From the NCBI GenBank assembly GCA_017676145.1, contig GCA_017676145.1_3628.1: 64,000 nucleotides of DNA; one strand, 5' to 3'. The position numbers and the translations under genes were made by a program. This document shows, one piece after another, positions 970 to 45,726 of this stretch. The stretch comes from a phage. The notes under the pieces were generated by a model, which saw nothing but the letters and a program-made list of their open reading frames with translations, ran no database searches and was not told the DNA's origin. Each line of letters starts with the position of its first letter. Positions within the stretch are counted from its first letter, which is position 1.

Positions 970-1248
970 ATGAGCTGCGAAAAATCTTTTTTCATCATCA
1001 TTTACGGCAAGGATAACTGCCCACATTGTGTAAGAGCAAAAGAATTTGCAGTCAGCAAAGGCATACCTTTCGTATACAAGACGCTAGGTGAGGGATACAC
1101 AAAAGAAGAGCTTATCGAGAAGTGTAGCCCATTTGTTCCCAGAACGTTGCCTCAGATCTTCTTGGAAAGCAACCTTGACAGTATCCACATAGGTGGTGCT
1201 GACGATTTCATCTCTTTTGTTAAGAATGGTTTTGGAGAGAAAAAGTGA
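970..1248 (+). CDS. glutaredoxin-like redoxin (NrdH/NrdC-like), 92 aa
   Basis: C-P-H-C active-site motif near N-terminus (YGKDNCPHCVRAK), size and fold pattern of glutaredoxin; stop overlaps nrdD start (GTGA). Confidence 0.7.
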   Translation: MSCEKSFFIIIYGKDNCPHCVRAKEFAVSKGIPFVYKTLGEGYTKEELIEKCSPFVPRTLPQIFLESNLDSIHIGGADDFISFVKNGFGEKK

Positions 1249-2105
1249 AAGTTGTAAAACGGGACGGTAGAGAAGAGTTTTATAACGGAATTAAGGTGAT
1301 CAAGGCGGCAGAGTCCGCCTTACTTGAGTCTGGACATACTGAAGAAGAAGCTTACCGGATTGCCTGTGCGGTTAATGAAGTTGTTGCCAACAATCTGCCA
1401 ACCGACCAGTGCACGATCTCTGTAAAAAATATCCATATCCTTGTTGAAGATGCTCTTATGGATATGGGTTTAAAATGTGCAGCCAGAGAATACATCCAGT
1501 ATAGACAGACAAGAGATAATAACAGAGAGGCAGGTGGAAAACTGCTTGCAGATATTAGTGGCTTCTTGGATCGTACTTGTGATGAATTTACAAAAGAAAA
1601 CGCAAATAAGCCTACTAATCATGTACACACTCATCGTGACCTGCTTGCAGGCATCCTTAGCAAACACCTTGCATCAACACAGATCCTGCCAGATCGTGTC
1701 TCAGAAGAGCACAACAAGGGCTTCATCCATGTGCATGATCTTGACTACTTGATCAGCCCGTTAACAAACTGTTGTTTGGTGAATTATCCGGATATGCTGG
1801 AAAACGGATTCAACATTGGCAACGCCCATGTCAGTAAGCCGAAGTCAATAGGGGTTGCAACAACAATCCTTAGCCAAATCTCTAGTGCAGTAGCTAGTGC
1901 TCAATATGGTGGTCAGACCATGAGCCATATTGATCATTATCTGGCACAGTATGCTGAAGCAACCTACGAGAAGAACCTTAAATTTTGTCAGGAACATTGG
2001 TTGCCAGATGCTGAGACTGTTGCAATGCAAATGACAGATAAAGACGTGTTTGATAGTATGCAAACTTTGCTCTACCAAATCAATACGTTAACTTCTGTCA
2101 ACGGT
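1245..2105 (+). CDS. nrdD: anaerobic ribonucleoside-triphosphate reductase NrdD, exon 1 (ATP-cone and N-terminal half)
   Basis: N-terminal ATP-cone (MKVVKRDGREEFYNGIKV). ORF stops at 2106-2108 exactly where the NrdD-like sequence is interrupted; C-terminal half resumes in the same frame at 2904. Confidence 0.8.
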
Positions 2106-2903
2106 TAACAAACTGGCCGTTGTAAAACTCTCCTAACCTCATAAGAGGGGTCGGTAAATCCGGCTAACGGGGAACGCTAAGGCGAAAGCTATGCCAATCC
2201 CGTGACTAGTTCTTACAGGAGTTGGAACGGTTGTAACGACTAACGAAAGGCAGAGATGCTTGACAAACATTTCTGAACCGAGTAGTGTAGGGGTTAGTTG
2301 AAATACTAACTTCGAAAGGGAGAGACTCTATGAAAAAGATCATTCTTAATGGTGAAGAATCGAACTACGTGATTGATGAGGTGGGAAACGTATACGGAAA
2401 ACGTGGAATGCTGCACCCCATATTGTGGGGAGGTTATGGAAAAGGTAACAAGCATGTTAAACGCCGCTATATGTATTCTTTCAACCACAAAGGTAAGAAG
2501 ATTCGAATCCAAACTTCAAGGGTTGTTGCCTTGTATTGTTTGCCAGATGTCCCAGAAGACCCTGAAAACTGGGAAGTGAATCATAAAGATGGCAATACAT
2601 TGAATGATCATCCGTCTAACCTAGAGTGGGTTTTGCCGGAAGATAATAAGAGACATGCTTTCCGAACAGGGCTTTGTCCAGGCAAGTGCTACAGGAAAGT
2701 GCAGGCATACCAAGGGAAAACCTTGGTGGGTGAATATCCTTCACTCTATGCCTGTGCAAAAGCCTTAAATTTGAACGTAGGGAACGTCCATAGGGCTATC
2801 GAAGGAAATGCCGAAGGTAAGCATCTCACAATAAAGGGTTATTATCTTATTGAAGTAGAGTAAGAGATAGTCTGGCCCTGTGGAAACACAGGGGTGGAGA
2901 CAG
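2106..2903 (+). mobile_element. group I self-splicing intron in nrdD carrying an HNH homing endonuclease ORF
   Basis: 798 nt (multiple of 3) between two NrdD halves. Exon 1 ends in U (caacggt) that can pair with downstream ccgttg (P1/IGS-like). Intron ends in G. GACUA / UAGUC P7-like elements flank the ORF. Predicted junction gives ...TSVNG/QTPFITL. Confidence 0.6.
2330..2863 (+). CDS. intron-encoded HNH homing endonuclease, 177 aa
   Basis: HNH motif VNHKDGNTLNDHPSNLEWV; located entirely inside the nrdD intervening sequence; ATG preceded by purine-rich SD. Confidence 0.75.
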   Translation: MKKIILNGEESNYVIDEVGNVYGKRGMLHPILWGGYGKGNKHVKRRYMYSFNHKGKKIRIQTSRVVALYCLPDVPEDPENWEVNHKDGNTLNDHPSNLEWVLPEDNKRHAFRTGLCPGKCYRKVQAYQGKTLVGEYPSLYACAKALNLNVGNVHRAIEGNAEGKHLTIKGYYLIEVE

Positions 2904-4163
2904 CAGACTCCATTCATCACATTAAGTTTAGGGCTAGATACCTCGGTCTTTGGTAGAATGATTACCAAAAACTACTTGAAAGTTCACAAAATGGGTCTTG
3001 GTGAAGAACGGATCACACCTGTGTTCCCTAAAGTGCTGTTCTTCTTAGAGGAGGGTGTCAACATGAACCCTGGGGATCCTAACTACGATTTGAAACGATT
3101 GGCTCTAGAATGTTCTGCAGAGCGGATTTATCCTGACTTTGTTTCTGTTCCGCTGAATCGTAAAGTGACAGGTTCAACAGACGGCAAAGTAACAAGCATG
3201 GGATGTAGGTCGTTCCTTGGCAAATATGTTACACCGGAGGGTGATGAAAAATACCTTGGCAGATTCAACTTGGGTGTTGTTAGCCTTAACCTACCAATGA
3301 TTGCGGCAAAAGCTAAGACGGAAGGTATTGATTTCTTTGCAGTTCTTGACGAATACTTGGATCTTGCATACGAGGCTCACCTTGTAAGGGTTAACCGTCT
3401 AAAAGGAACAAAGGCAGGGCAGAACCCTATCATGTGGTGTGAAGGAGCTCTTGCTCGCCTGGATCCTGAAGAGAGTATCGATAAACTCTTCTATGACGGG
3501 TACGCTTCCATCAGTATTGGGTATATTGGTGTGTATGAAACCTGTCAGATTTTGGGCAGAGAGGGTGACAAGGCTTTAGCTCTTGGAATCCTTCAGCACA
3601 TGAAAGATGCTTGTGAGCGATACAAGAAGGAAAGTGGACTAGCATTTAGCTTGTACGGCACACCTTCTGAGAGTTTATGCTATAAAGCTGCAACCTGTCT
3701 GGATCGTGAATACCCAGAAGTGTTGAAGCACGAGCATGAATACCTCACCAACAGTTTCCATCAGCCAGTATGGATCAATAGCTCGCCTTTTGATAAGTGG
3801 AAGTATGAGGAAGGTTTTGCTATGATCTCCTCTGGTGGTAACATTGGGTACATAGAGACACCAAATCTGAAAAACAACTTAGATGCTTTGGAAGCTCTTG
3901 TTGATTTCGGATATAAACACATTATGTATTTTGGTATTAACCAGCCTGTGGATAAATGTCTTAAGTGTGGATTCTCTGGTGAGTTCAGTGCAACAGCTAA
4001 AGGCTTTGTATGCCCAGAGTGTGGAAACCATGAAGAGGGAACGATCAGTGTGATTAGACGTGTATCCGGGTATCTATCCAGTCCAAACTCCCGTCCTTAC
4101 AATAAAGGTAAGCAAGCGGAGGTTATAGAACGGGTTAAGCACTACGGAAGTTGTGGTTGCTGA
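2904..4163 (+). CDS. nrdD: anaerobic ribonucleoside-triphosphate reductase NrdD, exon 2 (C-terminal half with glycyl-radical domain)
   Basis: C-terminal zinc ribbon (CLKCG...CPECG) and glycyl-radical motif RVSGYL; in frame with exon 1 after removal of 2106-2903. Confidence 0.8.
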   Translation, partial: QTPFITLSLGLDTSVFGRMITKNYLKVHKMGLGEERITPVFPKVLFFLEEGVNMNPGDPNYDLKRLALECSAERIYPDFVSVPLNRKVTGSTDGKVTSMGCRSFLGKYVTPEGDEKYLGRFNLGVVSLNLPMIAAKAKTEGIDFFAVLDEYLDLAYEAHLVRVNRLKGTKAGQNPIMWCEGALARLDPEESIDKLFYDGYASISIGYIGVYETCQILGREGDKALALGILQHMKDACERYKKESGLAFSLYGTPSESLCYKAATCLDREYPEVLKHEHEYLTNSFHQPVWINSSPFDKWKYEEGFAMISSGGNIGYIETPNLKNNLDALEALVDFGYKHIMYFGINQPVDKCLKCGFSGEFSATAKGFVCPECGNHEEGTISVIRRVSGYLSSPNSRPYNKGKQAEVIERVKHYGSCGC

Positions 4164-9265: not shown

Positions 9266-9499
9266 ATGAAAGTTAAATTTCTTACAGATTTAGGGTACCC
9301 TTCCTTGGTTGACTGCGTTGGTAAAATTGTGGAAGCAAAACGGCTATCTGCAAACGATAATGTTGTCATGGTTAAGGGAAAAGATTTACTGGCTGCAGGT
9401 GCAGAGTCTGGCAGGATCTCTCCTGACTATACGTATTACCTGTCTTTAAGTAATCTACCAGAACGAGGCGGCAAAGGCCTTGAAGTTGTGGAGGAGTGA
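9266..9499 (+). CDS. small protein, member of MKVK...KGxDLxAAGA...EVVEE paralogous family
   Basis: MKVKFL N-terminus, VKGKDLLAAGA core, C-terminal LEVVEE; ggaggt SD. Confidence 0.55.
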   Translation: MKVKFLTDLGYPSLVDCVGKIVEAKRLSANDNVVMVKGKDLLAAGAESGRISPDYTYYLSLSNLPERGGKGLEVVEE

Positions 9500-9503
9500 C
9501 AGT

Positions 9504-10022
9504 ATGCTATTAGTTGATTGGAAAGATTTTTATGGAGATAAAGACCCGAAAGCCTTTATATATAAGCCATGGAGATACTCAGAGAGTCAAATTGCTGCAA
9601 TAAACCTTACAGCAAAGCGCCGAAAAATTATCGAAAGTAAATATAGATACGCTCAGCTAGTAGCTGGTGTTTCTCCACAGGTAGAGAGTTTTGTGCTCAA
9701 ACTGTACGAAAAGTTTATGAGTTACGATCTGTCATTCGTGAAGGTTGGTGATGATTTATCTCCTGGTAACAACGTAACCCGTTGGAAAGTTTCATGTGAC
9801 AAAAAACTCCCGGTCAGTATTGAGGTGTGCCGATACTGGGGGTATCATGATTGTGGATTGTACGACTATCATGATGTGGAAATAAAGCCACGCAATCATC
9901 TAAGCGACCCAGAAAAAGATTACTTGAAGCATGTGATTCTTTCCATGTTTGGAGGGTACATCACAGAGAAAAATAGCGAAGACAGGGTATCCTTTCTTAA
10001 CAGTTTGAACCAGGAGATGTAG
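9504..10022 (+). CDS. hypothetical protein (172 aa)
   Basis: ATG at M9 of track ORF 9480..10022, preceded by gaggag SD. Confidence 0.5.
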   Translation: MLLVDWKDFYGDKDPKAFIYKPWRYSESQIAAINLTAKRRKIIESKYRYAQLVAGVSPQVESFVLKLYEKFMSYDLSFVKVGDDLSPGNNVTRWKVSCDKKLPVSIEVCRYWGYHDCGLYDYHDVEIKPRNHLSDPEKDYLKHVILSMFGGYITEKNSEDRVSFLNSLNQEM

Positions 10023-11816: not shown

Positions 11817-12007
11817 AAAACTTACGTTTTAACACTTATTACTACAACACTTTGAATGATTTGTATTATATTGTTCGAAGTAAAAGTCCTGAAACAGTCC
11901 TATTCTGCCGCGAACCTTTCAAAGGGGAGGAAGTAGAGTCTGAGATGAATGTTAGCCATATTACCTCTTTGTTGCTCTCAGGTGCAATGGAAGAAGCAAT
12001 ATTCTAA
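11813..12007 (+). CDS. hypothetical protein (64 aa)
   Basis: Track ORF, start overlaps upstream stop. Confidence 0.45.
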   Translation: MKNLRFNTYYYNTLNDLYYIVRSKSPETVLFCREPFKGEEVESEMNVSHITSLLLSGAMEEAIF

Positions 12008-12025
12008 ACCAGTCGGGAGGGTTCT

Positions 12026-12211
12026 ATGAAGCACTATTGCCTGTCTGGTAGGATGGGTGCAGATTGTGATTGGATTTTCTTAAAACTTGTCAGCATCCGA
12101 GAGTCAATCCCAGAGGAAGAGCAAGAAAGCGAGCTGATGTCATGGATCAACTATTACGGCAACACTTTCCGGTATGTCAAAATGGAAGAGCTGCCAAACG
12201 AGGATGATTGA
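12026..12211 (+). CDS. hypothetical protein (61 aa)
   Basis: Track ORF with gggaggg SD. Confidence 0.45.
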   Translation: MKHYCLSGRMGADCDWIFLKLVSIRESIPEEEQESELMSWINYYGNTFRYVKMEELPNEDD

Positions 12212-12213
12212 TT

Positions 12214-12303
12214 ATGGTCGCATCAATATTAACGTTTATGGGTGGCGTGGCATTCGGATTCATTATTTGTCTGTTTATAGTTATTATGGCTATGCGAGGC
12301 TGA
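12214..12303 (+). CDS. micro-ORF encoding TM peptide (29 aa)
   Basis: MVASILTFMGGVAFGFIICLFIVIMAMRG between two track ORFs; weak SD. Not on track. Confidence 0.3.
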   Translation: MVASILTFMGGVAFGFIICLFIVIMAMRG

Positions 12304-12306
12304 ATT

Positions 12307-12591
12307 ATGAAACTGTTTGAGTGGTTTAAAAAGTTTAAATACCGAGCCGTTGCTGTATCGAAATGGACCGTCCGCTGGGTGGACGATGATGGAACACAAA
12401 TTCCAGGTGATCAGGATACAGGATACTGGGTTATGATGGAGAACGGATTTGGGAAAAGGAAGTTTAAATGTGTTGGTGCTCCTACTCTTTTAAATGTTAG
12501 AAGTGTGCCAGGGTACAGCACTATGGTTGTTTGGGAGCTATCCGGTGTTCCTCCTGCCAATGTGCAATATCTGCCAAACCCAGAAAAATAA
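12307..12591 (+). CDS. hypothetical protein (94 aa)
   Basis: Track ORF. Confidence 0.5.
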   Translation: MKLFEWFKKFKYRAVAVSKWTVRWVDDDGTQIPGDQDTGYWVMMENGFGKRKFKCVGAPTLLNVRSVPGYSTMVVWELSGVPPANVQYLPNPEK

Positions 12592-12603
12592 AAGGAGAAG
12601 ATA

Positions 12604-12888
12604 ATGAGCAATGGTGTCAGTAACAGTGCTGCAGAGTTTAAAGTGATCTGTAAAGGAACTTATTGGATAGTGAAACAGAAGGTGTACCTATTCGGTTTCA
12701 TACCGTTTTGGCAGAGATTTTGCTGGGGAGCTAACGAGCTTAAGAGATACGCTACCAAGTCTATGGCACTTATTGGTATAGCTGAATACATTGCTGCCAG
12801 AGACAGAGAGGGGAAAACTTGTTACTACACTGCTGACGAGATTCGTAACAGTGTTTACGTTCCACAACCGCCCGATGGAGACCGCTGA
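12604..12888 (+). CDS. hypothetical protein (94 aa)
   Basis: Track ORF with aaaaggagaag SD. Confidence 0.5.
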   Translation: MSNGVSNSAAEFKVICKGTYWIVKQKVYLFGFIPFWQRFCWGANELKRYATKSMALIGIAEYIAARDREGKTCYYTADEIRNSVYVPQPPDGDR

Positions 12889-13112
12889 TGAAAGTTAAAG
12901 TTTTAGATTCAAACTTCTATATTGGTCAAGAGCCTTTAGTTGGAAAAGTGTTTACCGCTATCCCTAACGAAGATTATCCTGACCTTTTAAAAATAAAAGG
13001 GGAAGATCTTATTGCCGCTGGCGCGTCTCAGGAATGCTTTGACAGTCAGTGGACCTACAACTTTGCCCTAGGGGAGGATGTGGAGGTAGTGGAGGACGAT
13101 TATGAAGGTTAA
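12888..13112 (+). CDS. small protein, MKVK...EVVEE family member (first gene of duplicated triplet A)
   Basis: MKVKVLDSNFYIGQ..IKGEDLIAAGA...VEVVEDDYEG; ATGA overlap with upstream gene. Confidence 0.55.
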   Translation: MKVKVLDSNFYIGQEPLVGKVFTAIPNEDYPDLLKIKGEDLIAAGASQECFDSQWTYNFALGEDVEVVEDDYEG

Positions 13113-13356
13113 AATTCTTGACTCTAACGTCTACTTGGGACAATCATTCCTGAAGGGAAAGGTCGTACCTGCTGTATACTTCGAAGGGTTGCCGTGGGAT
13201 GATCCTGTGCGGCAAAATCACAGCCATGTAGGCCACAATGTGGTGTTCATTTTGGGATCAGACCTGATCGCGGCTGGTGCCCCGGAATATTATTTCGGAG
13301 ATGACTCGTATTATGCCTTTGGGGTAGGGTCAGATGCAGATATTTTAGAGCCGTGA
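13102..13356 (+). CDS. small protein, MKVK family member (triplet A, gene 2)
   Basis: MKVKILDSNVYLGQ...LGSDLIAAGA; paralogous to 12888 and 9266 ORFs. Confidence 0.55.
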   Translation: MKVKILDSNVYLGQSFLKGKVVPAVYFEGLPWDDPVRQNHSHVGHNVVFILGSDLIAAGAPEYYFGDDSYYAFGVGSDADILEP

Positions 13357-13767
13357 TTGGGGACTGTTGTGAAAAATAAACTGTTCAAAGTTACAATGAA
13401 AATTCGCGGAGCTTGGAGCGTAAAGCAAGGGCGTATCCCGGAATTTGAGAAAGACTTCTACGTAGTCTCTACCTCTGAAGAGGCTGCATGCTGGCAGGCT
13501 GGCTATGCCTACGCAAGAACTTGGTACGAAGGGTACCAGACTGGGGGCTATGACGGAGAAATTGTCAGTAAGGGTGTGGAAGAAATTAATGTGTTGACAA
13601 GTGAAAAAGTTTTTGTTATAGTACATCCTGATTCCAGAGTGAAGCATTACTGGAATGCCAGAACAAAAACCTGGACACCGTTTGCAGATTCTGCTACACC
13701 ACTTTTAAACCAGAAAGCTCTTGACTCTGCCCCGAGCTACGGGGTTGTTGAAGAAAAGATAAGCTGA
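13357..13767 (+). CDS. hypothetical protein (about 130 aa), paralog of 15571..15966 (triplet A, gene 3)
   Basis: Shares HP..S.V.HYW...T.TWTP block with 15571 ORF; exact start uncertain (TTG 13357 / GTG 13369 / ATG 13396). Confidence 0.45.
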   Translation: MGTVVKNKLFKVTMKIRGAWSVKQGRIPEFEKDFYVVSTSEEAACWQAGYAYARTWYEGYQTGGYDGEIVSKGVEEINVLTSEKVFVIVHPDSRVKHYWNARTKTWTPFADSATPLLNQKALDSAPSYGVVEEKIS

Positions 13768-13784
13768 AATAGTGGGGTACTTAC

Positions 13785-14075
13785 ATGATGGATTTAGTTT
13801 TGGATACTGATAACACCGAATCGTTTAAAAAAGATGGTGTAATAAGCATGGACCAATCCTGCCATGCCAAGATTGACTCAAAATGGACCTACAAGTTTGA
13901 CGGTGAGATCTTCGCAAATGATGAGAAGGTCGTGGATGCTGTAGCCATTTTAAAAGCTTTAGGGTATGACCCTGTGAACTCATTGATCAAGGATCCTGTT
14001 GAGTTTGCAGAGTATGTTCGTAAAATGGCAGATCTTGCAGTGGATATTTTAAAAACTATCGACGACAAGCTGTAA
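13785..14075 (+). CDS. hypothetical protein (96 aa)
   Basis: Track ORF with ggggta SD. Confidence 0.5.
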   Translation: MMDLVLDTDNTESFKKDGVISMDQSCHAKIDSKWTYKFDGEIFANDEKVVDAVAILKALGYDPVNSLIKDPVEFAEYVRKMADLAVDILKTIDDKL

Positions 14076-14081
14076 AAACTG

Positions 14082-14110
14082 TTGACACAACATTTGATCT
14101 TTAGTATCAT
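14082..14110 (+). promoter_or_regulatory. sigma70-like promoter (TTGACA-17-TATCAT) upstream of hpf-like gene, followed by 5' UTR hairpin
   Basis: ttgacacaacatttgatctttagtatcat, then gaggg-tttggtt-ccctc hairpin (about 14121-14137), aaggag SD, ATG 14158. Confidence 0.5.
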
Positions 14111-14157
14111 TATTTTCAAAGAGGGTTTGGTTCCCTCTTCTTTAAAAGGAGCACGTT

Positions 14158-14475
14158 ATGCAGATTGAAATCACTGGCAACGTAGAGATCACTGAAGGTA
14201 TGGTGTCTTTCATTTCCCACAAAATGTCCAAACTGGAGCGTTTGCACCCATCTGCCAACTATGCACGTGTGAGTGTAAAAGTTGAAAATGATCACCAGGA
14301 AGTTATGGCTTTTATTTTTGACAATTCTGGGAAAGAAGTTATCGCCAAAGCTAAAGGTAGCGATGCTTACGAGGCAACTGACCGTATGGTGGATGTTGCA
14401 GCACGCCAGTTGGCTAAATGCGGTGGAAAGAAAGGTAAGGGAAAAGGTAAAGTAAAGATTGACTTTTGGGATTGA
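14158..14475 (+). CDS. hpf: ribosome hibernation promoting factor / RaiA (S30AE family) homolog
   Basis: N-terminus MQIEITGNVEITEG and ...AARQLAK closely parallel E. coli HPF (MQLNITGNNVEITEA...LARQLTK); 105 aa with Lys/Gly-rich tail. Confidence 0.75.
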   Translation: MQIEITGNVEITEGMVSFISHKMSKLERLHPSANYARVSVKVENDHQEVMAFIFDNSGKEVIAKAKGSDAYEATDRMVDVAARQLAKCGGKKGKGKGKVKIDFWD

Positions 14476-14484
14476 GGTGCTACA

Positions 14485-14586
14485 ATGGGTATGATTAAGA
14501 AATTAGTCCCAAATGTAGAGATTGCATGCTTTGAAATTATGTTTGCAATCGCAGTTGTAGTTAATGTGTTAGGTTACGGCTATTAA
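14485..14586 (+). CDS. micro-ORF encoding hydrophobic peptide (33 aa)
   Basis: ATG 5 nt after gaggtg SD; MGMIKKLVPNVEIACFEIMFAIAVVVNVLGYGY. Not on track. Confidence 0.3.
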   Translation: MGMIKKLVPNVEIACFEIMFAIAVVVNVLGYGY

Positions 14587-14612
14587 TATCAAATAATTGA
14601 GGAGACCTCTAA

Positions 14613-14882
14613 ATGAAAATTAAATTATTCAAAACTGAGCTGGCAGACAAAAACTGCGGACTGGTTGAAGGCATGATCGTTGAAGCACAACCAGTGGACT
14701 ACATGAAGGTGGTTCGTGATGCTCTGGGTGAAGGTTTTGATCTGATGGAGCCAGCTCTGCGAGAAGATGTCATCGAGATGGCTAAAAAGCACACACCGGA
14801 AGGTTTGGTAGTGTTTGTTGCTCCAGGTAACGGAGAAGAGTTGATTGTAACTCCGGATGTGTATGAGGTTGTAGAGGAGTAA
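14613..14882 (+). CDS. small protein with C-terminal YEVVEE (family-related)
   Basis: MKIKLF start, ends VYEVVEE; gaggagacc SD. Confidence 0.55.
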   Translation: MKIKLFKTELADKNCGLVEGMIVEAQPVDYMKVVRDALGEGFDLMEPALREDVIEMAKKHTPEGLVVFVAPGNGEELIVTPDVYEVVEE

Positions 14883-14970
14883 TCTTGGGTTAGCCATACT
14901 TCCTCGACAAGAAAGGTTTGTAATTATTTGCGGGAAAGGAATCCCCATCTCTTACCAGAGGTGATACTGT

Positions 14971-15234
14971 ATGATTGTTTATTTTAAAACTTCAGGTGGA
15001 TACCCTGATTCTCAAAGCTTGATTGGAAAAACGTGCACAGCATACTCGCCTCTTGATGATGAGGTAAGTGATACCCTACGAAATATGTATCGGATTGATC
15101 CACAAGAAGCTTTTGATCAGAACCTTGTATTTGTCAAGGGCTCAGACATGAAGTCTTTGGGGGCATTTCCTGAAGCAGATGATAATGCTGTTTATTCGTT
15201 TATGACCCCTTTTGAAGCTATGGTTGTTGGGTGA
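14971..15234 (+). CDS. small protein, MKVK family-related (triplet B, gene 1)
   Basis: ...VKGSDMKSLGA... core; gaggtga SD. Confidence 0.5.
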   Translation: MIVYFKTSGGYPDSQSLIGKTCTAYSPLDDEVSDTLRNMYRIDPQEAFDQNLVFVKGSDMKSLGAFPEADDNAVYSFMTPFEAMVVG

Positions 15235-15238
15235 GAAT

Positions 15239-15571
15239 ATGAAAGTACGCTTTATTGGTGAAACAATTCCTGTGCATCTCCGGTCGCCTGAGGATTCTGC
15301 AGATCTTGCATCTCAAAAGGCCAGAGGGTATGATAAGAAAGTAATCTCAACCGATGTAGAGCTTGAGGCTACCAGTCTGCCTGACCCTGCTGCATTCTTT
15401 AATCATTATGGATACTATTTCAGCAATCTGATGAATATCGGTGAGCTTGTGTTTATTAGTGGTGGAGAAATAGTTAGCAAGCTTGGCGGCGATCCGGATG
15501 TCTTTCATGAAACCTGCCCTTTTGCATTTGTGGTAGGTTCAGATGTGGAAGTTATTGAGGAGGTGCGGTAA
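15239..15571 (+). CDS. small protein, MKVK family member (triplet B, gene 2)
   Basis: ATG at M10 of track ORF 15212..15571 (MKVRFIGE); C-terminal VEVIEEVR. Confidence 0.5.
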   Translation: MKVRFIGETIPVHLRSPEDSADLASQKARGYDKKVISTDVELEATSLPDPAAFFNHYGYYFSNLMNIGELVFISGGEIVSKLGGDPDVFHETCPFAFVVGSDVEVIEEVR

Positions 15572-15966
15572 TGGTAAGTCTATACCGTGTTGAGTATAGC
15601 TCAGATACTGTATACAACGTAAGAAGCAAAGATCGTAGCGACAGAGTGCAAGAAATGTATGTTCTTGCCGACAGTCCGTTATCTGCAGCGTTTAAGGCAG
15701 GAGCTCTTGCATCTCGTTGGAAATTCGAGGGTGGATCTTTCTATGAAGAAACTCTTGAAGATTCTGTTGTTATTTCTTCTGTAGAGGTTTCAACTGACTA
15801 CGAAGGGAAAAAGTTCGTAATGCGGCACCCACACAGCAACATTGCGTACTACTGGGATGTTCTGAACAACGAGTGGACTCCAGATCTTCAGAAGGCCACT
15901 GTTCTGACTCCGTTCTTGGCAGATAAGTTCCCACCAGAAGGTAATTTATCTGCACTGTTTCAGTAA
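15571..15966 (+). CDS. hypothetical protein (131 aa), paralog of 13357..13767 (triplet B, gene 3)
   Basis: Shares RHPHSNIAYYW...NEWTP block with 13357 ORF. Confidence 0.5.
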   Translation: MVSLYRVEYSSDTVYNVRSKDRSDRVQEMYVLADSPLSAAFKAGALASRWKFEGGSFYEETLEDSVVISSVEVSTDYEGKKFVMRHPHSNIAYYWDVLNNEWTPDLQKATVLTPFLADKFPPEGNLSALFQ

Positions 15967-15984
15967 TTTTATTCTACACAGGTG

Positions 15985-16013
15985 TTGACAACACCAACCC
16001 TGTGTGCAATAAT
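15985..16013 (+). promoter_or_regulatory. sigma70-like promoter (TTGACA-17-AATAAT) flanked by inverted repeat
   Basis: cacaggtgttgacaacaccaaccctgtgtgcaataat; cacagg/cctgtg inverted repeat brackets the -35 region (possible operator). Confidence 0.45.
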
Positions 16014-16045
16014 ACCTTCATCTTAACAAGACAGGAGACTGATTG

Positions 16046-16303
16046 ATGAAGATTAAATTGAAAAACCTTGAAATGGCAGAGGTTCAGGAAGGTGTTGATT
16101 TCCGCTCTAAAGATGGCGACATCTTAGAGGCGAATATCCCGACCTATAAGTTGATTAAAGGTTTTGGCAACGTTCCTGAAGAGGATATTACAGACATTCT
16201 TATGATGTTGATCCTTGACGGGACCGTGTTTGTAGGTGAAGGTGAGAACGCTATTGCAATCCCAGGCCATTTTTATGAAGTAGTTGACGAAGAGGTGCTG
16301 TAA
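16046..16303 (+). CDS. small acidic protein with C-terminal YEVVDEEVL (family-related)
   Basis: ATG at M2 of track ORF; acaggag SD. Confidence 0.5.
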   Translation: MKIKLKNLEMAEVQEGVDFRSKDGDILEANIPTYKLIKGFGNVPEEDITDILMMLILDGTVFVGEGENAIAIPGHFYEVVDEEVL

Positions 16304-16654
16304 ATGAAAGTAGAGATCACAGGTTTTGATATGAATGTGGTTCCGGAAGATATTTTAGCTAAACTTCCGGAAGGTTTTGGTAACGGTGTTGTGGTGGATG
16401 CTGTCCCTCCTACCAAAGACATTCTGCTGCAGTATGGTGTAGCAGAGGAAGATGTCGATAAAGTTCTTACAATGATGGCAATAGACCGTGTTGTCGTTGT
16501 TAAAGGTCTTGAAGGTTTTGATGACGATCCTCTGATTATTCGTGGTGATGACTATCGCATCATCGACAACGAAGGCCAAGAGTTCTACGAACCTTCTGCT
16601 GAAGATGTTCTTAACTTACTACTGGAAGCAGGCACCGAAGAGGAGGAAGAATAA
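16304..16654 (+). CDS. hypothetical acidic protein (116 aa)
   Basis: Track ORF, ATG directly after upstream stop. Confidence 0.5.
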   Translation: MKVEITGFDMNVVPEDILAKLPEGFGNGVVVDAVPPTKDILLQYGVAEEDVDKVLTMMAIDRVVVVKGLEGFDDDPLIIRGDDYRIIDNEGQEFYEPSAEDVLNLLLEAGTEEEEE

Positions 16655-16983
16655 TGAAAATTGATCCGTTACTAAAGGCTCGTGCAGAAAAAGCATACAC
16701 TATCAAGCTGACCTCTCTGGTCCCTACTTGTCATCCGGATGTAGGTTGGCCTGAAGGCCTGGTAGAGGGGACTGTAACAGCTGCATACCTTCCTAACATC
16801 AAATACCTCATGGAGATCTTGGAGATGGATGAGGAAACGGCAGAACAGTTCCAGTTAGACATGAAGCAAAGTGGGACTCTGGTTATTCACGGGTGGTATA
16901 ATACTAAAGATGCAGAAGATCCCCTGGTAACTTCTAATCTGGCATATGAAATCTTAGGACCTTTGAACTTGGGGGAAGACTAA
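16654..16983 (+). CDS. hypothetical protein (109 aa)
   Basis: Track ORF, start overlaps upstream stop. Confidence 0.5.
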   Translation: MKIDPLLKARAEKAYTIKLTSLVPTCHPDVGWPEGLVEGTVTAAYLPNIKYLMEILEMDEETAEQFQLDMKQSGTLVIHGWYNTKDAEDPLVTSNLAYEILGPLNLGED

Positions 16984-17270
16984 TGAAAGGTTTGGTTAAG
17001 ATCAAGATTAAAGACACCAAGGGAGAACTCAGCCATTTTGGAATTAACGATGGTGACGAGCTGATCGCCCACCTGCCTACCAAGGAAGTTGTAAGCAAAG
17101 CTGTTGCCGGAGAAGAAGATGCAATGCAGGCTGCAGGTGTGGATGAAAACTATGTAGCAATGTGTATGTGCCGAGATCAGGTTGTTCTGTATAAAGCGTA
17201 TCGACCAAATGGAGCACCTGAGTGGCTTGTTTTCCGACCCGAAGGGTATGAAATTTTAGAGACGCTATGA
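16983..17270 (+). CDS. hypothetical protein (95 aa)
   Basis: Track ORF, start overlaps upstream stop. Confidence 0.5.
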   Translation: MKGLVKIKIKDTKGELSHFGINDGDELIAHLPTKEVVSKAVAGEEDAMQAAGVDENYVAMCMCRDQVVLYKAYRPNGAPEWLVFRPEGYEILETL

Positions 17271-17359
17271 TAAATCTTGCCAAGGTTGCAACGGCACTGT
17301 TAATTATTTGCTGGATAGTGACCTTGGCACTATGTCTTGTATTTCATTAAGGGGGCTGT

Positions 17360-17623
17360 ATGAACATCCTGATGTGGGTTGTGGCAGTGGCGTTTGTTGC
17401 GTGCCTCTCTTGTTGGGTTGCTGTGAGGATTTCTATAGCCACTCTTCGGAAATTAGGGTTCTCAGAGTGGGATATTAATATCCTCTCTTTTCGCAATGAG
17501 ACGATCTCAGCTGCCTTACTGTGCAAGAAGTTCAAGTGGAAACCTTGGGAGGTCATGAGCTATCTAAGAACAGGAGATATTCCTGAGAGATTTAAAAAAG
17601 TTCTTGACGGCGAAGATAAATGA
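17360..17623 (+). CDS. small membrane protein (87 aa)
   Basis: N-terminal TM helix MNILMWVVAVAFVACLSCWVAV; gggggctg SD. Confidence 0.5.
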   Translation: MNILMWVVAVAFVACLSCWVAVRISIATLRKLGFSEWDINILSFRNETISAALLCKKFKWKPWEVMSYLRTGDIPERFKKVLDGEDK

Positions 17624-20081: not shown

Positions 20082-20499
20082 TAAGTTCTTCTCTTTTCTT
20101 TTACCGAGTAATTCGGGTTTTCTGTTCTCTTCGGTTTGAAGGGGTATGGAGATACACCTGAGTGAACAGGGTGAACAACCGAACAGTTAGCTATGGCATT
20201 AGCATGGCGAAGCGGACGGGTGACGAAAGAGGGGCCGGAGGACACCAGTCACTGCCATATGGTATATGGGTGATAACCTGAAGAGTCTGAATAAGTGTTT
20301 AAGTACCAGTCAGAGGAAAAGGTGAATGGTAGCCGAAGGGGGAGGGGGGTTTCTTGTATCTTTAATTTGTATACTTTATATACACTTGTAAACCAATTCA
20401 ATTAGAATCTGTTTACCACACAAAGTGGATACAGGCAAATATTCCCTATTAAACTTGAATTATTTATAGAAAATACCACAACACCACTTAAGTCTTTGA

Positions 20500-20660
20500 T
20501 TTTACACACAAATCTTACAGATATTCAACCTCCATATTTAACATACCTGTAACATATCCCATACTCTACCTGCCTGATCAATTTCCCAAACTACATCCCC
20601 ATATTTTCCCTTCCTGTACTACCCCTGCCCCGCCGGGAGTCCCGTCATATCTGGCTTTCC
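20500..20660 (+). other. strongly strand-biased pyrimidine-rich (C+T) tract in non-coding hub
   Basis: About 160 nt with very few G on + strand (aacctccatatttaacatacctgtaacatatcccatactctacc...). Confidence 0.5.
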
Positions 20661-21044
20661 AGCAAATATCACACCCACAAATATCATCACCTGAAGAGTG
20701 ATTCCTCCCATAATCCACACCCTGCCTGAAGAGCGCTTCATACACCGCGTAAATTTTTTAATTGATCCCTCCCCGCCGCCGGAGAGGTTGGCTTTTCCCA
20801 CACAGGCCTGAAGAGTCAGCCAGAAATATCTGAAGGGTGTCCAGTTCTACCACGATTTTGACCTGACCTACAGGAGTGCTGCCCTGTCAGGAGCCGTAGC
20901 GACTGGAGTGCTGCCAGGCGGACGAAATGGGAATACTTCTCATTCTTATAACAATTCTCAAATATCGGGGCAGTGAGGCAAATTAATAGGCGAGGCCGCT
21001 CACACAGTGGCACAACATTTGCAGGCTATTTTGTGGGGGTGAAT

Positions 21045-21078
21045 GAGAATACCTATCATTGTGAGAATAGTTATCATT
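21045..21078 (+). repeat. tandem pair of 16-bp motif GAGAAYRNYTATCATT
   Basis: gagaatacctatcatt and gagaatagttatcatt 2 nt apart; same motif recurs at about 31924 and 32050. Confidence 0.55.
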
Positions 21079-21473
21079 ACGGGCAATTTAACATAATACC
21101 CATTATGCGCACCACTGTCGATACATACAGGGATTGATAACATGGGTTACTGTTTACGCATATAACAATTGTATTTCTTATTATTTGTGGGGGATATAGT
21201 TAGCAACCAATAGATTAGTTATTAACCTGCGGACTTCTGACCGTCTAGACGTCCAAACGCCCACACCACAAGGATTATACATACACTCCTGAATGTAAAC
21301 AGGTCCGAAAAAATGCTACCATACCAGTTTGTAAATTTTCCATGCAGCACTTGACAAAGAGGAGAAAAACTTGTCTGACACCTTATACACACCGGGCACC
21401 TTATACACTTTCGACACAATAACGACTGTTATTATTTCATGTTTCATTATTCACGTGCAGATTGTTCCTGCGT

Positions 21474-21535
21474 AGACTGTTTACGCCTGGATAGTTTGCA
21501 CCTGAATAGTTTACACCCTGACAGTTTACGCATAG
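21474..21535 (+). repeat. array of four AGTTTAC(G/A)C-type iterons spaced 14-15 bp
   Basis: ctgtttacgcc / tagtttgcacc / tagtttacacc / cagtttacgca in direct orientation. Confidence 0.55.
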
Positions 21536-21543
21536 ATGATAAG

Positions 21544-21562
21544 CCATGACATTCGTTTGCAT
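21544..21562 (+). repeat. 19-20 bp direct repeat copy 1 (gccatgacattcgtttgcat)
   Basis: Exact second copy at 21837..21855; the pair brackets iteron/palindrome-rich segment. Confidence 0.6.
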
Positions 21563-21594
21563 GATAACACCCTTGAGACGAGGGCTATGCTCCC

Positions 21595-21660
21595 GAGTTT
21601 AACAATTAACAAGATAACAATTGACAAGCTAACAGCCAACAAGCTGACAATTAACAGGTT
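21595..21660 (+). repeat. array of AACAATTAACAAG-like iterons
   Basis: taacaattaacaag ataacaattgacaag ctaacagccaacaag ctgacaattaacagg: four direct repeats. Confidence 0.5.
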
Positions 21661-21836
21661 AATAATATATGACATAATATAAAAGCAGGGCAACTATTAG
21701 CAGATCTATAGTTGCCTTGCTTATTATGTCATGATTAACTGAATACAAGGCAACTATGATCTGATTAATAGATTGCAGACAAACTATCACGGGGGTGATT
21801 GTTACTGCTTTTATATTATGTCGCGACTCCGTCGCG

Positions 21837-21855
21837 CCATGACATTCGTTTGCAT
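21837..21855 (+). repeat. 19-20 bp direct repeat copy 2 (gccatgacattcgtttgcat)
   Basis: Identical to 21544..21562. Confidence 0.6.
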
Positions 21856-22470
21856 AGTTGCCTTATTGTTACAGGTAAAATAATTACATTGTTAACTATT
21901 TCTTATCTTTCTCTTAGTCATCTAATGATTCCAGTCAGTATAGTTATGTGCAGTAAACATTAGACGACTAAAGATTTCTCTGATTATAGTAACCTATCGT
22001 GACAATTTCGGACTGTTTACGAAAAATGTTGACACCTGGGCAGGTTTATGTTATGCAGTTTGTACGAATAATTATTTTGTACAGGTATTGACTATTCCGT
22101 TATTCTGTGGTTGGAATAAATACTTTGCAGGCTATAGAATGGTGATCGTACGTGGATTCTGAGATCTGTCGGCTATAGTTACACCCGATTTTTCACGTAG
22201 GACGCGCTTTTTGGTTTGTGTAAGTGTATGACTTATAAGGGTTTTTAATTGTTGACAGTATACTGAAAATGTGCATCAGGTTAAATTTTGCGCAATAGCT
22301 GCATTACGTGCAATTTTGGGAGAGAAAACAGGTAAAAATAGCACCGCTACCACACAATGAAAGGTTATGCAATAGTTATTTTACATGTATATTTGTACAG
22401 TGTGCTGGATTAATGGCTCGTCAATTATTCCACTTGTCAGGTAGGGCCGTTTATGGTAGGAAAAGAGCAG

Positions 22471-42974: not shown

Positions 42975-43302
42975 CAATAGTTCAGGTAGGTCGTTAAGCT
43001 ACCCCGCACCATTACGTGCATAGCCATACAGTTTCCCGTATGGATCGGACTATCTCACTGCCTTGTCACCAAGGCACCTCTCATTTCGACCGCACTTGCT
43101 GGCCTACTCTACTCGCTTCTTCACCCCAAACTGTGTTGGAGCTATGCTTTCGATAGTCTCTGAACGTTCATCCTCTCGGATGCTTCGCTGCGGATTAGCA
43201 TATTGAGCTTTTACCATGGTTAGGTGTAAAAGTCAACTTAGCCTTCCCGTCAATTAAAGAGGTTTTCGACGTGCATCACTGCACGAAGCCACAATGTTAT
43301 TT
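42975..43302 (-). mobile_element. ORF-less group I intron interrupting DNA polymerase motif C
   Basis: 328 nt between H and DE codons of motif C; exon 1 ends in U, intron ends in G; P7-like pairing AGACUAU / AUAGUC present; in-frame stop 1 codon into intron. Confidence 0.55.
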
Positions 43303-45726
43303 ATGGTAATAAATAATCCGACGAACACCCTCATCATACCATCCACGCTTCACCAGCTGGTGGTGCATGAGGATTCCCACCAAGTCGCACAACGAGGCAC
43401 CGCCATTTTGCTGATATGCATTAAGCAAAGAGTGTTTAGAGCGGGTCCAAATGGCATGACCGTCAAAAGAGTAGATGAATTTCTTACCTGTTGCTTCCCA
43501 GAATTTCTCCAGATCCTCTTTACGCCCCTTAAGACCTGGGTTGGCATCCCAGAGAGCATCGATTACTCTCTGCCCCAGCTCTGGAGAGATATCCAGCATA
43601 TCTGCAACTTTATCTTTTTGTGCCCCGTACATAACCCCATACGTGACAGGCTTACCATCGTTACGAGACACCTCCCTGCCTGCTACTTTTGTATATGCCT
43701 CAGCATTGTTTTGGTGCGCATCTCCGTTACTTACAACATCATAGTACAGACCGTTGTCGAACTCAAAGGCACCCCAAGCCCCGATAAGCTGCTCTAAGTT
43801 GGACCCGTCAATACCGATCTCAAAGTATCCGGGAGGAACACCCCACAGACTACGCATCTCTTTACCCATAACCACTTTAGGAGATGGTTTAGGCATGTTT
43901 GCACAAATGCTGTGTTTCTGTCTGGAAGTGTTTGTTAATCCAGAACTTTTAGCAGGAAGCTTATGGTCAATCTTCAAACGTGGATGATTAAGAAGACCAG
44001 TATCAACCTTATCCTCCTTGATTGGATCAAGGACCGATCTACGGTTTCGCAAGGATAACCACAAGACGATATCTTTAGCCATCTCTCCGTTCAACTTTTC
44101 AAGATTCGGACATAGGTGTCCAAACGTATCTTTCAGTTGCGGAGAAGTAATAAGCGCTCTGGCTTTTCTACGTATCTTCCCAAACACTTCCTTTTTAATC
44201 CTTTCTGAGTTAGGGAAGCTTCGGAACTTGTGCACGGTTGTCTGAAACTTAGCATCAGTTTTGTTCCAGAAGTTTATAATTAGGTCACAATACTCTGACT
44301 CTAAAAGCTCGTCCATATATGCATATACTCGTGCATCAACATCAGCATCAGGCAGAGCTTTCTTCTTGCTGTCTTTAGTTACATCCTTAGTTCTCCACAT
44401 TGTTGGGAGCCAACCAGCACTAATCAGGTATCGCTTAATGTCGTCCTGATTGCTGATTTTCATAGGTATCTTGCAGTCAGGCATTCGCTTCTGCTGTAGG
44501 TCACTTATTGCCTGATCCATTAGCTCTTTAGGTAAAGGGTGTGGTGTAGAAGTTCCTTTGATATACCCCCTCAAGAAATCAGCCATCTTATCTGGGTCTT
44601 TACAGCCCATCTCTTCACACCATTTTATCCCCATTTTGCTGACATCCCCTGCAGAGGTAAATGCTCGCTTAGGAGGGGCTTTGAACTCTAAAGCGCTCAT
44701 GTCCACAGGATAGCCAAGCTTGTCTTTTAACCATTTCCAACCATTATTGGAGATTGTCCCATCCTGGTTAAACGGCTTTTCAGGGAACTTAGGCCGCTGA
44801 GACATTGATAACTCTTTTAAAGGAAGTTGTGGTTCAACACGATCAGCGATCTCTTTCATCCACGCATCGCAGCGGTCACGTAAAGCAATAGCCCCATCTA
44901 TGTCGAAATACACACCCTGTCGAGCCTGCAGCTCCATCAGGAAATGCTGCAGCATGCCTCGGCGTAATGCATTCTTCCAGGTAATCTTCTTGAATCCTTT
45001 AGGCTTCTCTTTGGCAGGGTCATACATAAAGTTCTGCATGTCAGATTTGCCGTAGAATACACCTTTTGATTCCGCTACCAACTCTTTCCAGAGCAACTCC
45101 TGGATGATAACGTCCTCGAACACACGATCCACATATTTCCACAGTGGAAGCTCACGCCAGTCATCGATTTGAACTTTCTGGTTACCAAGGGCATAGCCCC
45201 ATGCCATAAGGCCATGAGGCCCAACAGGTTGCATTTTCTTGGTAACTGGATTGAATACTGCGTCCGGACAACCTTTTGGCAAAGGGCGGTCAGGCCACAA
45301 GATTCGGCTCATAGCTAACGTATCAAACAGATTAACCTGGTGGTCGTTGATAGTTCCCATGCATTTAGGGTCACGGAACATATCAAAATGAATACCAGAT
45401 AATCTCTCCATCAGCATAAAGTCATAACTGTAGCAGTTATGGCAGTTCAAAGCTGTTGGTGACCAGTCGGAATTGCCTGTAAGCCAACCTTCCAACTCCG
45501 AAAAATCTGCTATGCGGACTTCAAAATCTTTATAAAGAGTTTTCTTTGCTAGAATAAAGTTCTTAGCCTTCTCTACATCCTCTTCAGAGTAGTGTGTGCG
45601 GTCATTTAGAGGAAGGAACAGCATAAAACGGTTCTTATTCAGCTCTTTAAACAAACCGCAGTGATAATAAAGATCTGGATCTTCCAGCAAGCCCGAGGCC
45701 TCCAGATCGAAAGACCACATACTCAT
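43303..45726 (-). CDS. DNA polymerase (family A, T7-like, with 3'-5' exonuclease domain), exon 1
   Basis: Exo I motif FDLEASG; motif A-like GIDGSNLEQ; motif B RNDGKPVTYGVMYGAQ; ORF terminates right after ...IIYYH, immediately before motif C acidic residues. Confidence 0.8.

Follow-up and report, generated by a model that had tools for sequence, protein, structure and literature searches.

The stretch of DNA from a lytic phage analysed here (64,000 nucleotides, hereafter the window; NCBI GenBank assembly GCA_017676145.1, contig GCA_017676145.1_3628.1) carries two small gene clusters, module A and module B, each of which consists of two genes for small proteins followed by a gene for a larger one. 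The two modules are best explained as old paralogous copies of a single accessory cassette which most likely has a role in host range or counter-defence, the copies having diverged and not being redundant. A probability of roughly 0.6 is assigned to this reading. Positions 12000-17500 match Escherichia phage FV3 at 98.9% identity and about 120 other rV5-like Vequintavirus phages at 90-97%, which identifies the window as an rV5-like Vequintavirus. The open reading frames (ORFs) on which the original prediction of a duplication was based are the same as those annotated in FV3, where all are labelled 'hypothetical protein' except for one ribosome hibernation factor. The genes of the two modules are as follows (aa, amino acids; pI, isoelectric point; E, expect value; dN/dS, ratio of nonsynonymous to synonymous substitution rates).

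A1, 12888..13112, + strand: small acidic protein of 74 aa, pI 4.05; small family, phrog_5009.
A2, 13102..13356, + strand: small-family protein of 84 aa with a loop insertion; phrog_5009, E 7e-32; dN/dS 0.13.
A3, 13369..13767, + strand: large-family protein, most likely of 132 aa from GTG 13369; phrog_7379, E 2.4e-73; dN/dS 0.04.
B1, 14971..15234, + strand: divergent small-family protein of 87 aa with a helical loop insertion; phrog_13920.
B2, 15239..15571, + strand: divergent small-family protein of 110 aa with larger insertions and a conserved C-terminal half; phrog_13661.
B3, 15571..15966, + strand: large-family protein of 131 aa; phrog_7379, E 4.2e-66.

The relationship between the modules is plainest for the large genes. 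When the + strand ORFs of the interval 1-21 kb were compared all against all by BLASTP, A3 and B3 shared 27% identity over 118 aa (E 1.4e-9), and as both match phrog_7379 end to end they are clear paralogues. The block HPxS...YW...WTP that had been proposed to unite the two proteins is real (HPDSRVKHYWNARTKTWTP vs HPHSNIAYYWDVLNNEWTP). Pairwise alignment sufficed for this pair but not for the small genes, for which a profile was needed. A1 and A2 share 40% identity (E 1.8e-14), whereas the small genes of module A and those of module B give pairwise E values of only 0.002-0.19. A1, A2 and a fifth family member at 9266-9499 match phrog_5009 over its full length (E 7e-32 to 1e-38), while the match of B1 is partial and weak (E 1.4e-4) and B2 has none at E <= 0.1. 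A hidden Markov model (HMM) was built from A1, A2, the 9266 gene and their homologues in prophages and other genomes, with all B1 and B2 sequences excluded to avoid circularity. When it was run against the 672 six-frame ORFs of the window, this leave-out model recovered B2 (E 1.5e-5, aligned over the C-terminal 40 residues) and B1 (E 4.2e-5), and the next ORF scored E 1.2. A profile to which B1 and B2 had been added recruited no further members from the window. On sequence grounds all four small genes of the modules can be assigned to one family, as had been proposed under the label of an MKVK family, although B1 begins with MIVYFK and not with a literal MKVK.

The three gene pairs also occur in the same order. 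Five small-family and two large-family genes are present in the window, with two small genes immediately before each large one; for the arrangement small-small-large on the + strand to occur twice among the 35 genes of the block has a P of 8.8e-5 (2 million permutations). With blastn no nucleotide similarity was detected between the modules or between A1 and A2, and the duplication would therefore be old, in keeping with the ancient divergence that had been suggested, since protein likeness is all that is left. Values of dN/dS between the window and its close relative Bas54 are 0.04-0.13 for all six genes, which indicates purifying selection on each of them. The ORF coordinates of the original prediction hold with a sole correction: A3 most likely starts at GTG 13369 rather than at TTG 13357, because the GTG is preceded by a GGGGA ribosome-binding site, and the FV3 annotation uses the same start. 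The start of A2 overlaps the end of A1 by 11 nucleotides (nt) and the start of B3 overlaps the stop of B2 by 1 nt; the close packing or overlap of the genes within the cassettes makes their co-translation probable. The modules are not in tandem, being separated by 1.2 kb with four unrelated genes, and the proposal of a tandem three-gene duplication is thus supported in part.

A function can be approached through phage Bas54 (Escherichia phage MaxBurger, MZ501093), which has been the subject of a transposon-sequencing (Tn-seq) preprint (bioRxiv 10.1101/2025.11.20.689424). The results given here are taken from the published supplementary tables of that preprint, among them Extended Data Table 8, in which K-12 is compared with the uropathogenic isolate CFE311. 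The orthologues of A1, A2 and A3 are bas54_0159, bas54_0158 and bas54_0157, and those of B1, B2 and B3 are bas54_0152, bas54_0151 and bas54_0150; protein identity to the cassettes of the window is about 92-98.5% (96.6% for bas54_0152 and 97.3% for bas54_0151). On K-12, A1, A2, A3 and B3 were scored 'Non-essential' and B1 and B2 'Intermediate'. On CFE311, insertion counts in all three module-B genes fell to 0 (q = 0), with log2 fold changes of -7.16 for B1, -6.17 for B2 and -6.77 for B3. A3 was partly depleted (-2.14, q = 0), no significant change was seen for A2 (-0.30) or A1 (+0.98), and the flanking genes, bas54_0149 and bas54_0154, showed no effect. The depletion of module B equals in size that recorded in the same table for bas54_0063 and bas54_0140, which the authors of the preprint validated as countering DS-28, a predicted defence system of CFE311; the main text of the preprint does not mention bas54_0150-0152 or bas54_0157. 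The Bas54 data lead to the conclusion that module B acts as a unit, or that at least B3 does, and that growth on a particular natural host depends on it. On K-12 the phage can do without module A, which was scored non-essential in Bas54 and is naturally deleted in phage Bas59. Both the console line and the numbers in the sheet of Extended Data Table 8 named 'resampling_K-12_vs_CFE303' are those of the CFE311 sheet (experimental file B54_2_311); as it is the CFE311 run, the deposited table lacks the CFE303 results for Bas54, and these cannot be used.

These observations can be accommodated in the following model. What was duplicated within a Vequintavirus-like lineage would have been either an ancestral cassette or a pair of one small and one large gene, to each copy of which a second small gene would later have been added; the copies would then have diverged until only protein similarity remained. 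Both copies would have been retained under purifying selection and would now behave differently. Judging from Bas54, module B would be needed on particular natural E. coli strains and not on K-12, A3 would contribute partly, and A1 and A2 would be dispensable. The cassette products, acting together and possibly as a complex, would neutralise or bypass a host factor peculiar to certain strains, for example an immune system. A more specific version, in which the cassette is a three-protein system for counter-defence or host range that only Vequintavirus-like phages possess, with module B directed against a determinant of CFE311 and module A against another one, can be offered only tentatively.

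The large family has a very narrow distribution. A word-indexed search returned orthologues only; with a full HMMER search over 1.84 billion cluster representatives the family grew to four lineages, namely A3, B3 and the diverged P0048 and P0049. Two long repeat proteins (P0051 and P0052) also came up as possible relatives, but their matches are short repeated YYWTV-like stretches and were treated as spurious. Nearly all of the 119 Vequintavirus records have both copies of the large gene. Relatives with a single copy, which the original prediction had expected to represent the ancestral state, were found in two groups. In the first (L005-L007, with a mean protein identity to the window of about 60%) the 9266-type gene is present, and A1 and A2 are followed not by A3 but by an unrelated gene, X; module B is complete, and the single large gene is of the B type. 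The second (L008 and the four IMG/VR contigs L018-L021, with a mean identity of about 46%) also has the 9266-type gene; its only large gene, of the A type, follows the unrelated genes X and Y, and the group has neither the gene for the ribosome hibernation factor HPF, nor module B, nor a small-family gene beside the large gene. The cassette is not an obligate unit.

Ranked by mean identity, L008 is the first to branch off, which leaves L005 as the sister of the phage of the window. Large-gene identity is 38% between A3 and P0049, 38-40% between B3 and P0048, and 24-30% across types, and the resulting four-taxon tree is unrooted and fits two histories equally well. The duplication may have preceded the split of all three lineages and been followed by differential loss of copies. 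Alternatively, it may have occurred after L008 split off, with the B copy evolving fast. Because the tree cannot be rooted, a lineage with a single copy may be either ancestral or the product of loss. In L008-like phages an array of other paralogues, which corresponds to the window genes at 14613, 16043, 16304 and 16983, is contiguous, and in the window module B interrupts this array, which favours the insertion of module B as a block.

Several points weigh against the view that the modules are copies of one counter-defence cassette. The likeness of B1 and B2 to the small family is weak, and for B2 it is limited to the C-terminal half. In a neighbour-joining tree of the small genes (70 columns only with long branches, and so a weak test), A1 and A2 group with the 9266 copy and the prophage homologues in a single clade (100% bootstrap support) that excludes B1 and B2. 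A strict copy of three genes, as originally envisaged, predicts that A1 pairs with B1 and A2 with B2; the tree disagrees, so that the homology and order of the genes stand but a strict copy is not demonstrated. It may be that a small-plus-large pair was copied and that the small gene was then duplicated separately in each module, or alternatively long branches or gene conversion may mask the expected pairing. The parts of the cassette are separable in L005-like and L008-like relatives and need not act together. As for Bas54, the follow-up in the preprint matched only bas54_0063 and bas54_0140 to DS-28, and its tables contain no knockouts of bas54_0150-0152; the only defence systems listed for CFE311 are DS-28 and Gao_Tmn, and module B was matched to neither. 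Insertions in B1 and B2 could be polar on B3, and the authors argue against widespread polarity without excluding it. The CFE311 phenotype could also reflect something other than immunity. Finally, no sequence or fold match points to a mechanism: none of the cassette genes has a match in Pfam, sequence searches of the PDB with the cassette proteins gave nothing below E 0.2, and apart from the family itself a search of BFVD returned just a 185-aa protein of phage 4MG and small phage proteins of a generic kind.

Foremost among the alternatives is that no block was duplicated within the genome. The two families would instead have expanded independently, or module B would be a xenologue acquired through recombination with a related phage, and the shared small-small-large order would reflect selection for the co-expression of interacting partners rather than descent of a block. 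The region is indeed mosaic, with genes X and Y replacing cassette members in the L005 and L008 lineages, and the small family also occurs as a single gene, both at 9266 and in lambdoid prophages. The small-gene tree is without cross-module pairing, as expected if the genes had expanded separately, and the ranking of PhoH identities runs against the mean species order, which indicates recombination. The large family, however, is present in this phage group only, so that no outside donor is visible, and the same three-gene order would arise twice by chance with a P of about 9e-5. Moreover, acquisition of module B from a close relative would still amount to a duplication at the level of the lineage. 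Independent expansion or transfer is considered rather unlikely.

A second alternative, which is regarded as improbable, is that the cassettes encode general host-takeover factors which target translation or RNA and have no part in counter-defence. The small proteins are predicted to adopt an SH3/KOW-like small beta-barrel, and the large protein is predicted to be an alpha/beta protein resembling the eL20/LX-PurS alpha/beta sandwich, with the conserved HPxS...YW...WTP block forming a hairpin. These predictions and the presence of the HPF gene between the modules would fit such a role. SH3/KOW-like and eL20/LX-PurS folds, however, are common scaffolds and do not establish mechanism, and the large protein has neither a sequence relationship to the ribosomal protein eL20/LX family nor a strong fold match with a basic RNA-binding surface. 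The cassette proteins are acidic, and the phenotype is strain-specific. HPF does not co-occur with the large gene in the L008 lineage, and in Bas54 its gene is non-essential and does not share the CFE311 phenotype (bioRxiv 10.1101/2025.11.20.689424). A likeness of the YYW...W.P motif to WW domains was considered and dropped, the spacing being different and no Pfam WW match being found. That the modules resemble each other merely by chance, as short acidic ORFs of biased composition might and as the weak pairwise E values of the small genes (0.002-0.19) could suggest, is already refuted, since the large pair matches at E 1.4e-9 and falls in one PHROG, the leave-out HMM sets B1 and B2 apart from the other 667 ORFs by five orders of magnitude, and orthologues in three lineages keep the same motifs.

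Other features of the region around the modules are listed below.

Fifth small-family gene, 9266..9499, + strand: 77 aa, phrog_5009, E 2.5e-36; 3.4 kb upstream and alone.
Inter-module spacer, 13785..14882, + strand: four unrelated genes over 1.2 kb.
Genes of the spacer: 13785-14075 (96 aa); HPF/RaiA, 14158-14475; a 33-codon ORF; 14613-14882 (another paralogue family).
Sigma-70-like promoter match, 14459..14486, + strand: TTGACT-16-TACAAT with an extended -10, upstream of 14613 and of module B.
Second sigma-70-like promoter match, 15985-16013: just past module B.

The gene at 9266-9499, which the original prediction missed, is 34% identical to A1 (BLASTP, E 1e-7) and has no adjoining large-family gene. 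The gene that follows it (9480-10022) was considered as a third large-family member and rejected, as hhalign gave a probability of 0.04% and the HMM gave no match. Single small-family genes of 75 aa, 37-41% identical to A1, are found in lambdoid E. coli prophages (L002:6001-6228, L003:6001-6228 and L004:371-598), in the stretch of small ORFs that separates the Q antiterminator from the holin/lysozyme genes, and the large family is not represented in their vicinity. The spacer gene at 14158-14475 encodes an HPF/RaiA ribosome hibernation factor (Pfam PF02482, E 1.8e-12). The two promoter matches come from a consensus scan only and may point to early expression; E. coli-like promoters have been reported across the rV5 genome in the rV5 genome paper. 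The neighbouring acidic genes at 14613, 16043, 16304, 16654 and 16983 could not be linked to the small family by homology, an iterated HMM having added no members and hhalign giving a probability of 6%. These five genes (14613-14882, 16043-16303, 16304-16654, 16654-16983 and 16983-17270) form a second family of small, very acidic paralogues, with the shared pattern MKIK..., G.IVEA.P, a helical insert and then ...YEVVEE, and module B sits between the first member and the other four.

Traces of rearrangement at the module A locus were seen in several relatives. In two independent Vequintavirus assemblies (L011:3001-3213 and L012:3001-3213; P0021) the A1-A2 pair is replaced by one hybrid gene of 70 aa, in which the N-terminus of A1 is joined to the C-terminus of A2 within the shared motif DLIAAGA. 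From its sequence this hybrid is what would be expected of unequal recombination between tandem paralogues. Matches in phage magaca that covered only residues 1-62 in tblastn were examined as further chimeras and proved to be ordinary A1 genes with a variant C-terminus. Phage EduardKellenberger/Bas59 (MZ501061; L014:3135-3602) has a natural deletion of about 3.8 kb that removes about 12 genes, including all of module A, and joins what is left of A3, its last ~33 codons, to the 9480-type gene ('putative glycosidase'); the phage keeps module B as well as the 9266-type gene. Gene X, a protein of about 96 aa with the motif ILDGxDxxPxVNRVxEL, occupies the position of A3 in L005 (8068-8358) and that of A1 in L008 (9343-9642) and is absent from the window, which points to gene replacement at this locus.

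Elsewhere in the window, the stretch from ~20140 to 22300 is poor in ORFs, contains several inverted repeats and is the place where the coding strand and the GC skew switch. Four repeats with a 15-nt period, ACAATTAACAAG-like, lie at 21602-21666. This is probably the same region as the intergenic stretch of about 2 kb between the divergent genes bas54_0134 and bas54_0135, which tolerated no insertions in Bas54 (bioRxiv 10.1101/2025.11.20.689424), and it is possibly a candidate replication origin. A complete group I catalytic intron is present on the minus strand at 43025-43312 (Rfam RF00028, 75 bits, E 2.8e-17). The ORFs at 1245-2108 and 2880-4163 are separated by an ORF of 177 aa at 2330-2863. 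Because in Bas54 the matching locus bears the annotation of a two-part class III anaerobic NTP reductase, next to which lies a 'putative homing endonuclease', the arrangement at 1245-4163 suggests that a mobile endonuclease has split one gene.

Paralogue expansion is a familiar phenomenon in the accessory regions of phages. Paralogous accessory clusters are found in the variable regions of large lytic phages, as in the hyperplastic regions of T4 and its internal proteins IPI, IPII and IPIII. Like those clusters, the cassettes consist of small, non-essential and fast-diverging genes with host-like promoters which vary among close relatives and are important only on particular hosts. Unlike IPI, IPII and IPIII, in which a single gene is repeated, the repeated element here is a three-gene unit drawn from two unrelated families, and in contrast to the T4 internal proteins it is without a packaging signal, an enzymatic motif or a known target. 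A comparison closer to hand is with bas54_0063 (a MoxR ATPase) and bas54_0140, which share with module B the phage, the screen, the host and the size of the depletion; their sequences are unrelated to those of module B, whose genes have no assigned defence system. The expansion described here is already half-visible in PHROGs, where part of the paralogy is implicit: phrog_5009, phrog_7379, phrog_13920 and phrog_13661 are all listed as 'unknown function', and neither function nor gene order is recorded. B1 and B2 are placed there in separate families. The rV5 genome paper does not mention a repeat at the level of the cassette (neither 'paralog' nor 'duplicat' occurs in the text).

What is new is that six 'hypothetical' ORFan genes are joined into two related cassettes, and that one of these is tied to a strong, strain-specific phenotype which is present in public Tn-seq data and has gone undiscussed. 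Vequintaviruses are broad-host-range phages of E. coli used in biocontrol and therapy, and most of their early genes are without a known function. The relatives provide a natural series for the duplication, divergence and loss of a module, comprising phages with both copies, with A only, with B only, with A1 and A2 fused, and with module A deleted. If the proposed reading is true, these phages would extend the range of their hosts by copying an entire multi-gene anti-immunity unit and turning it to a new target.

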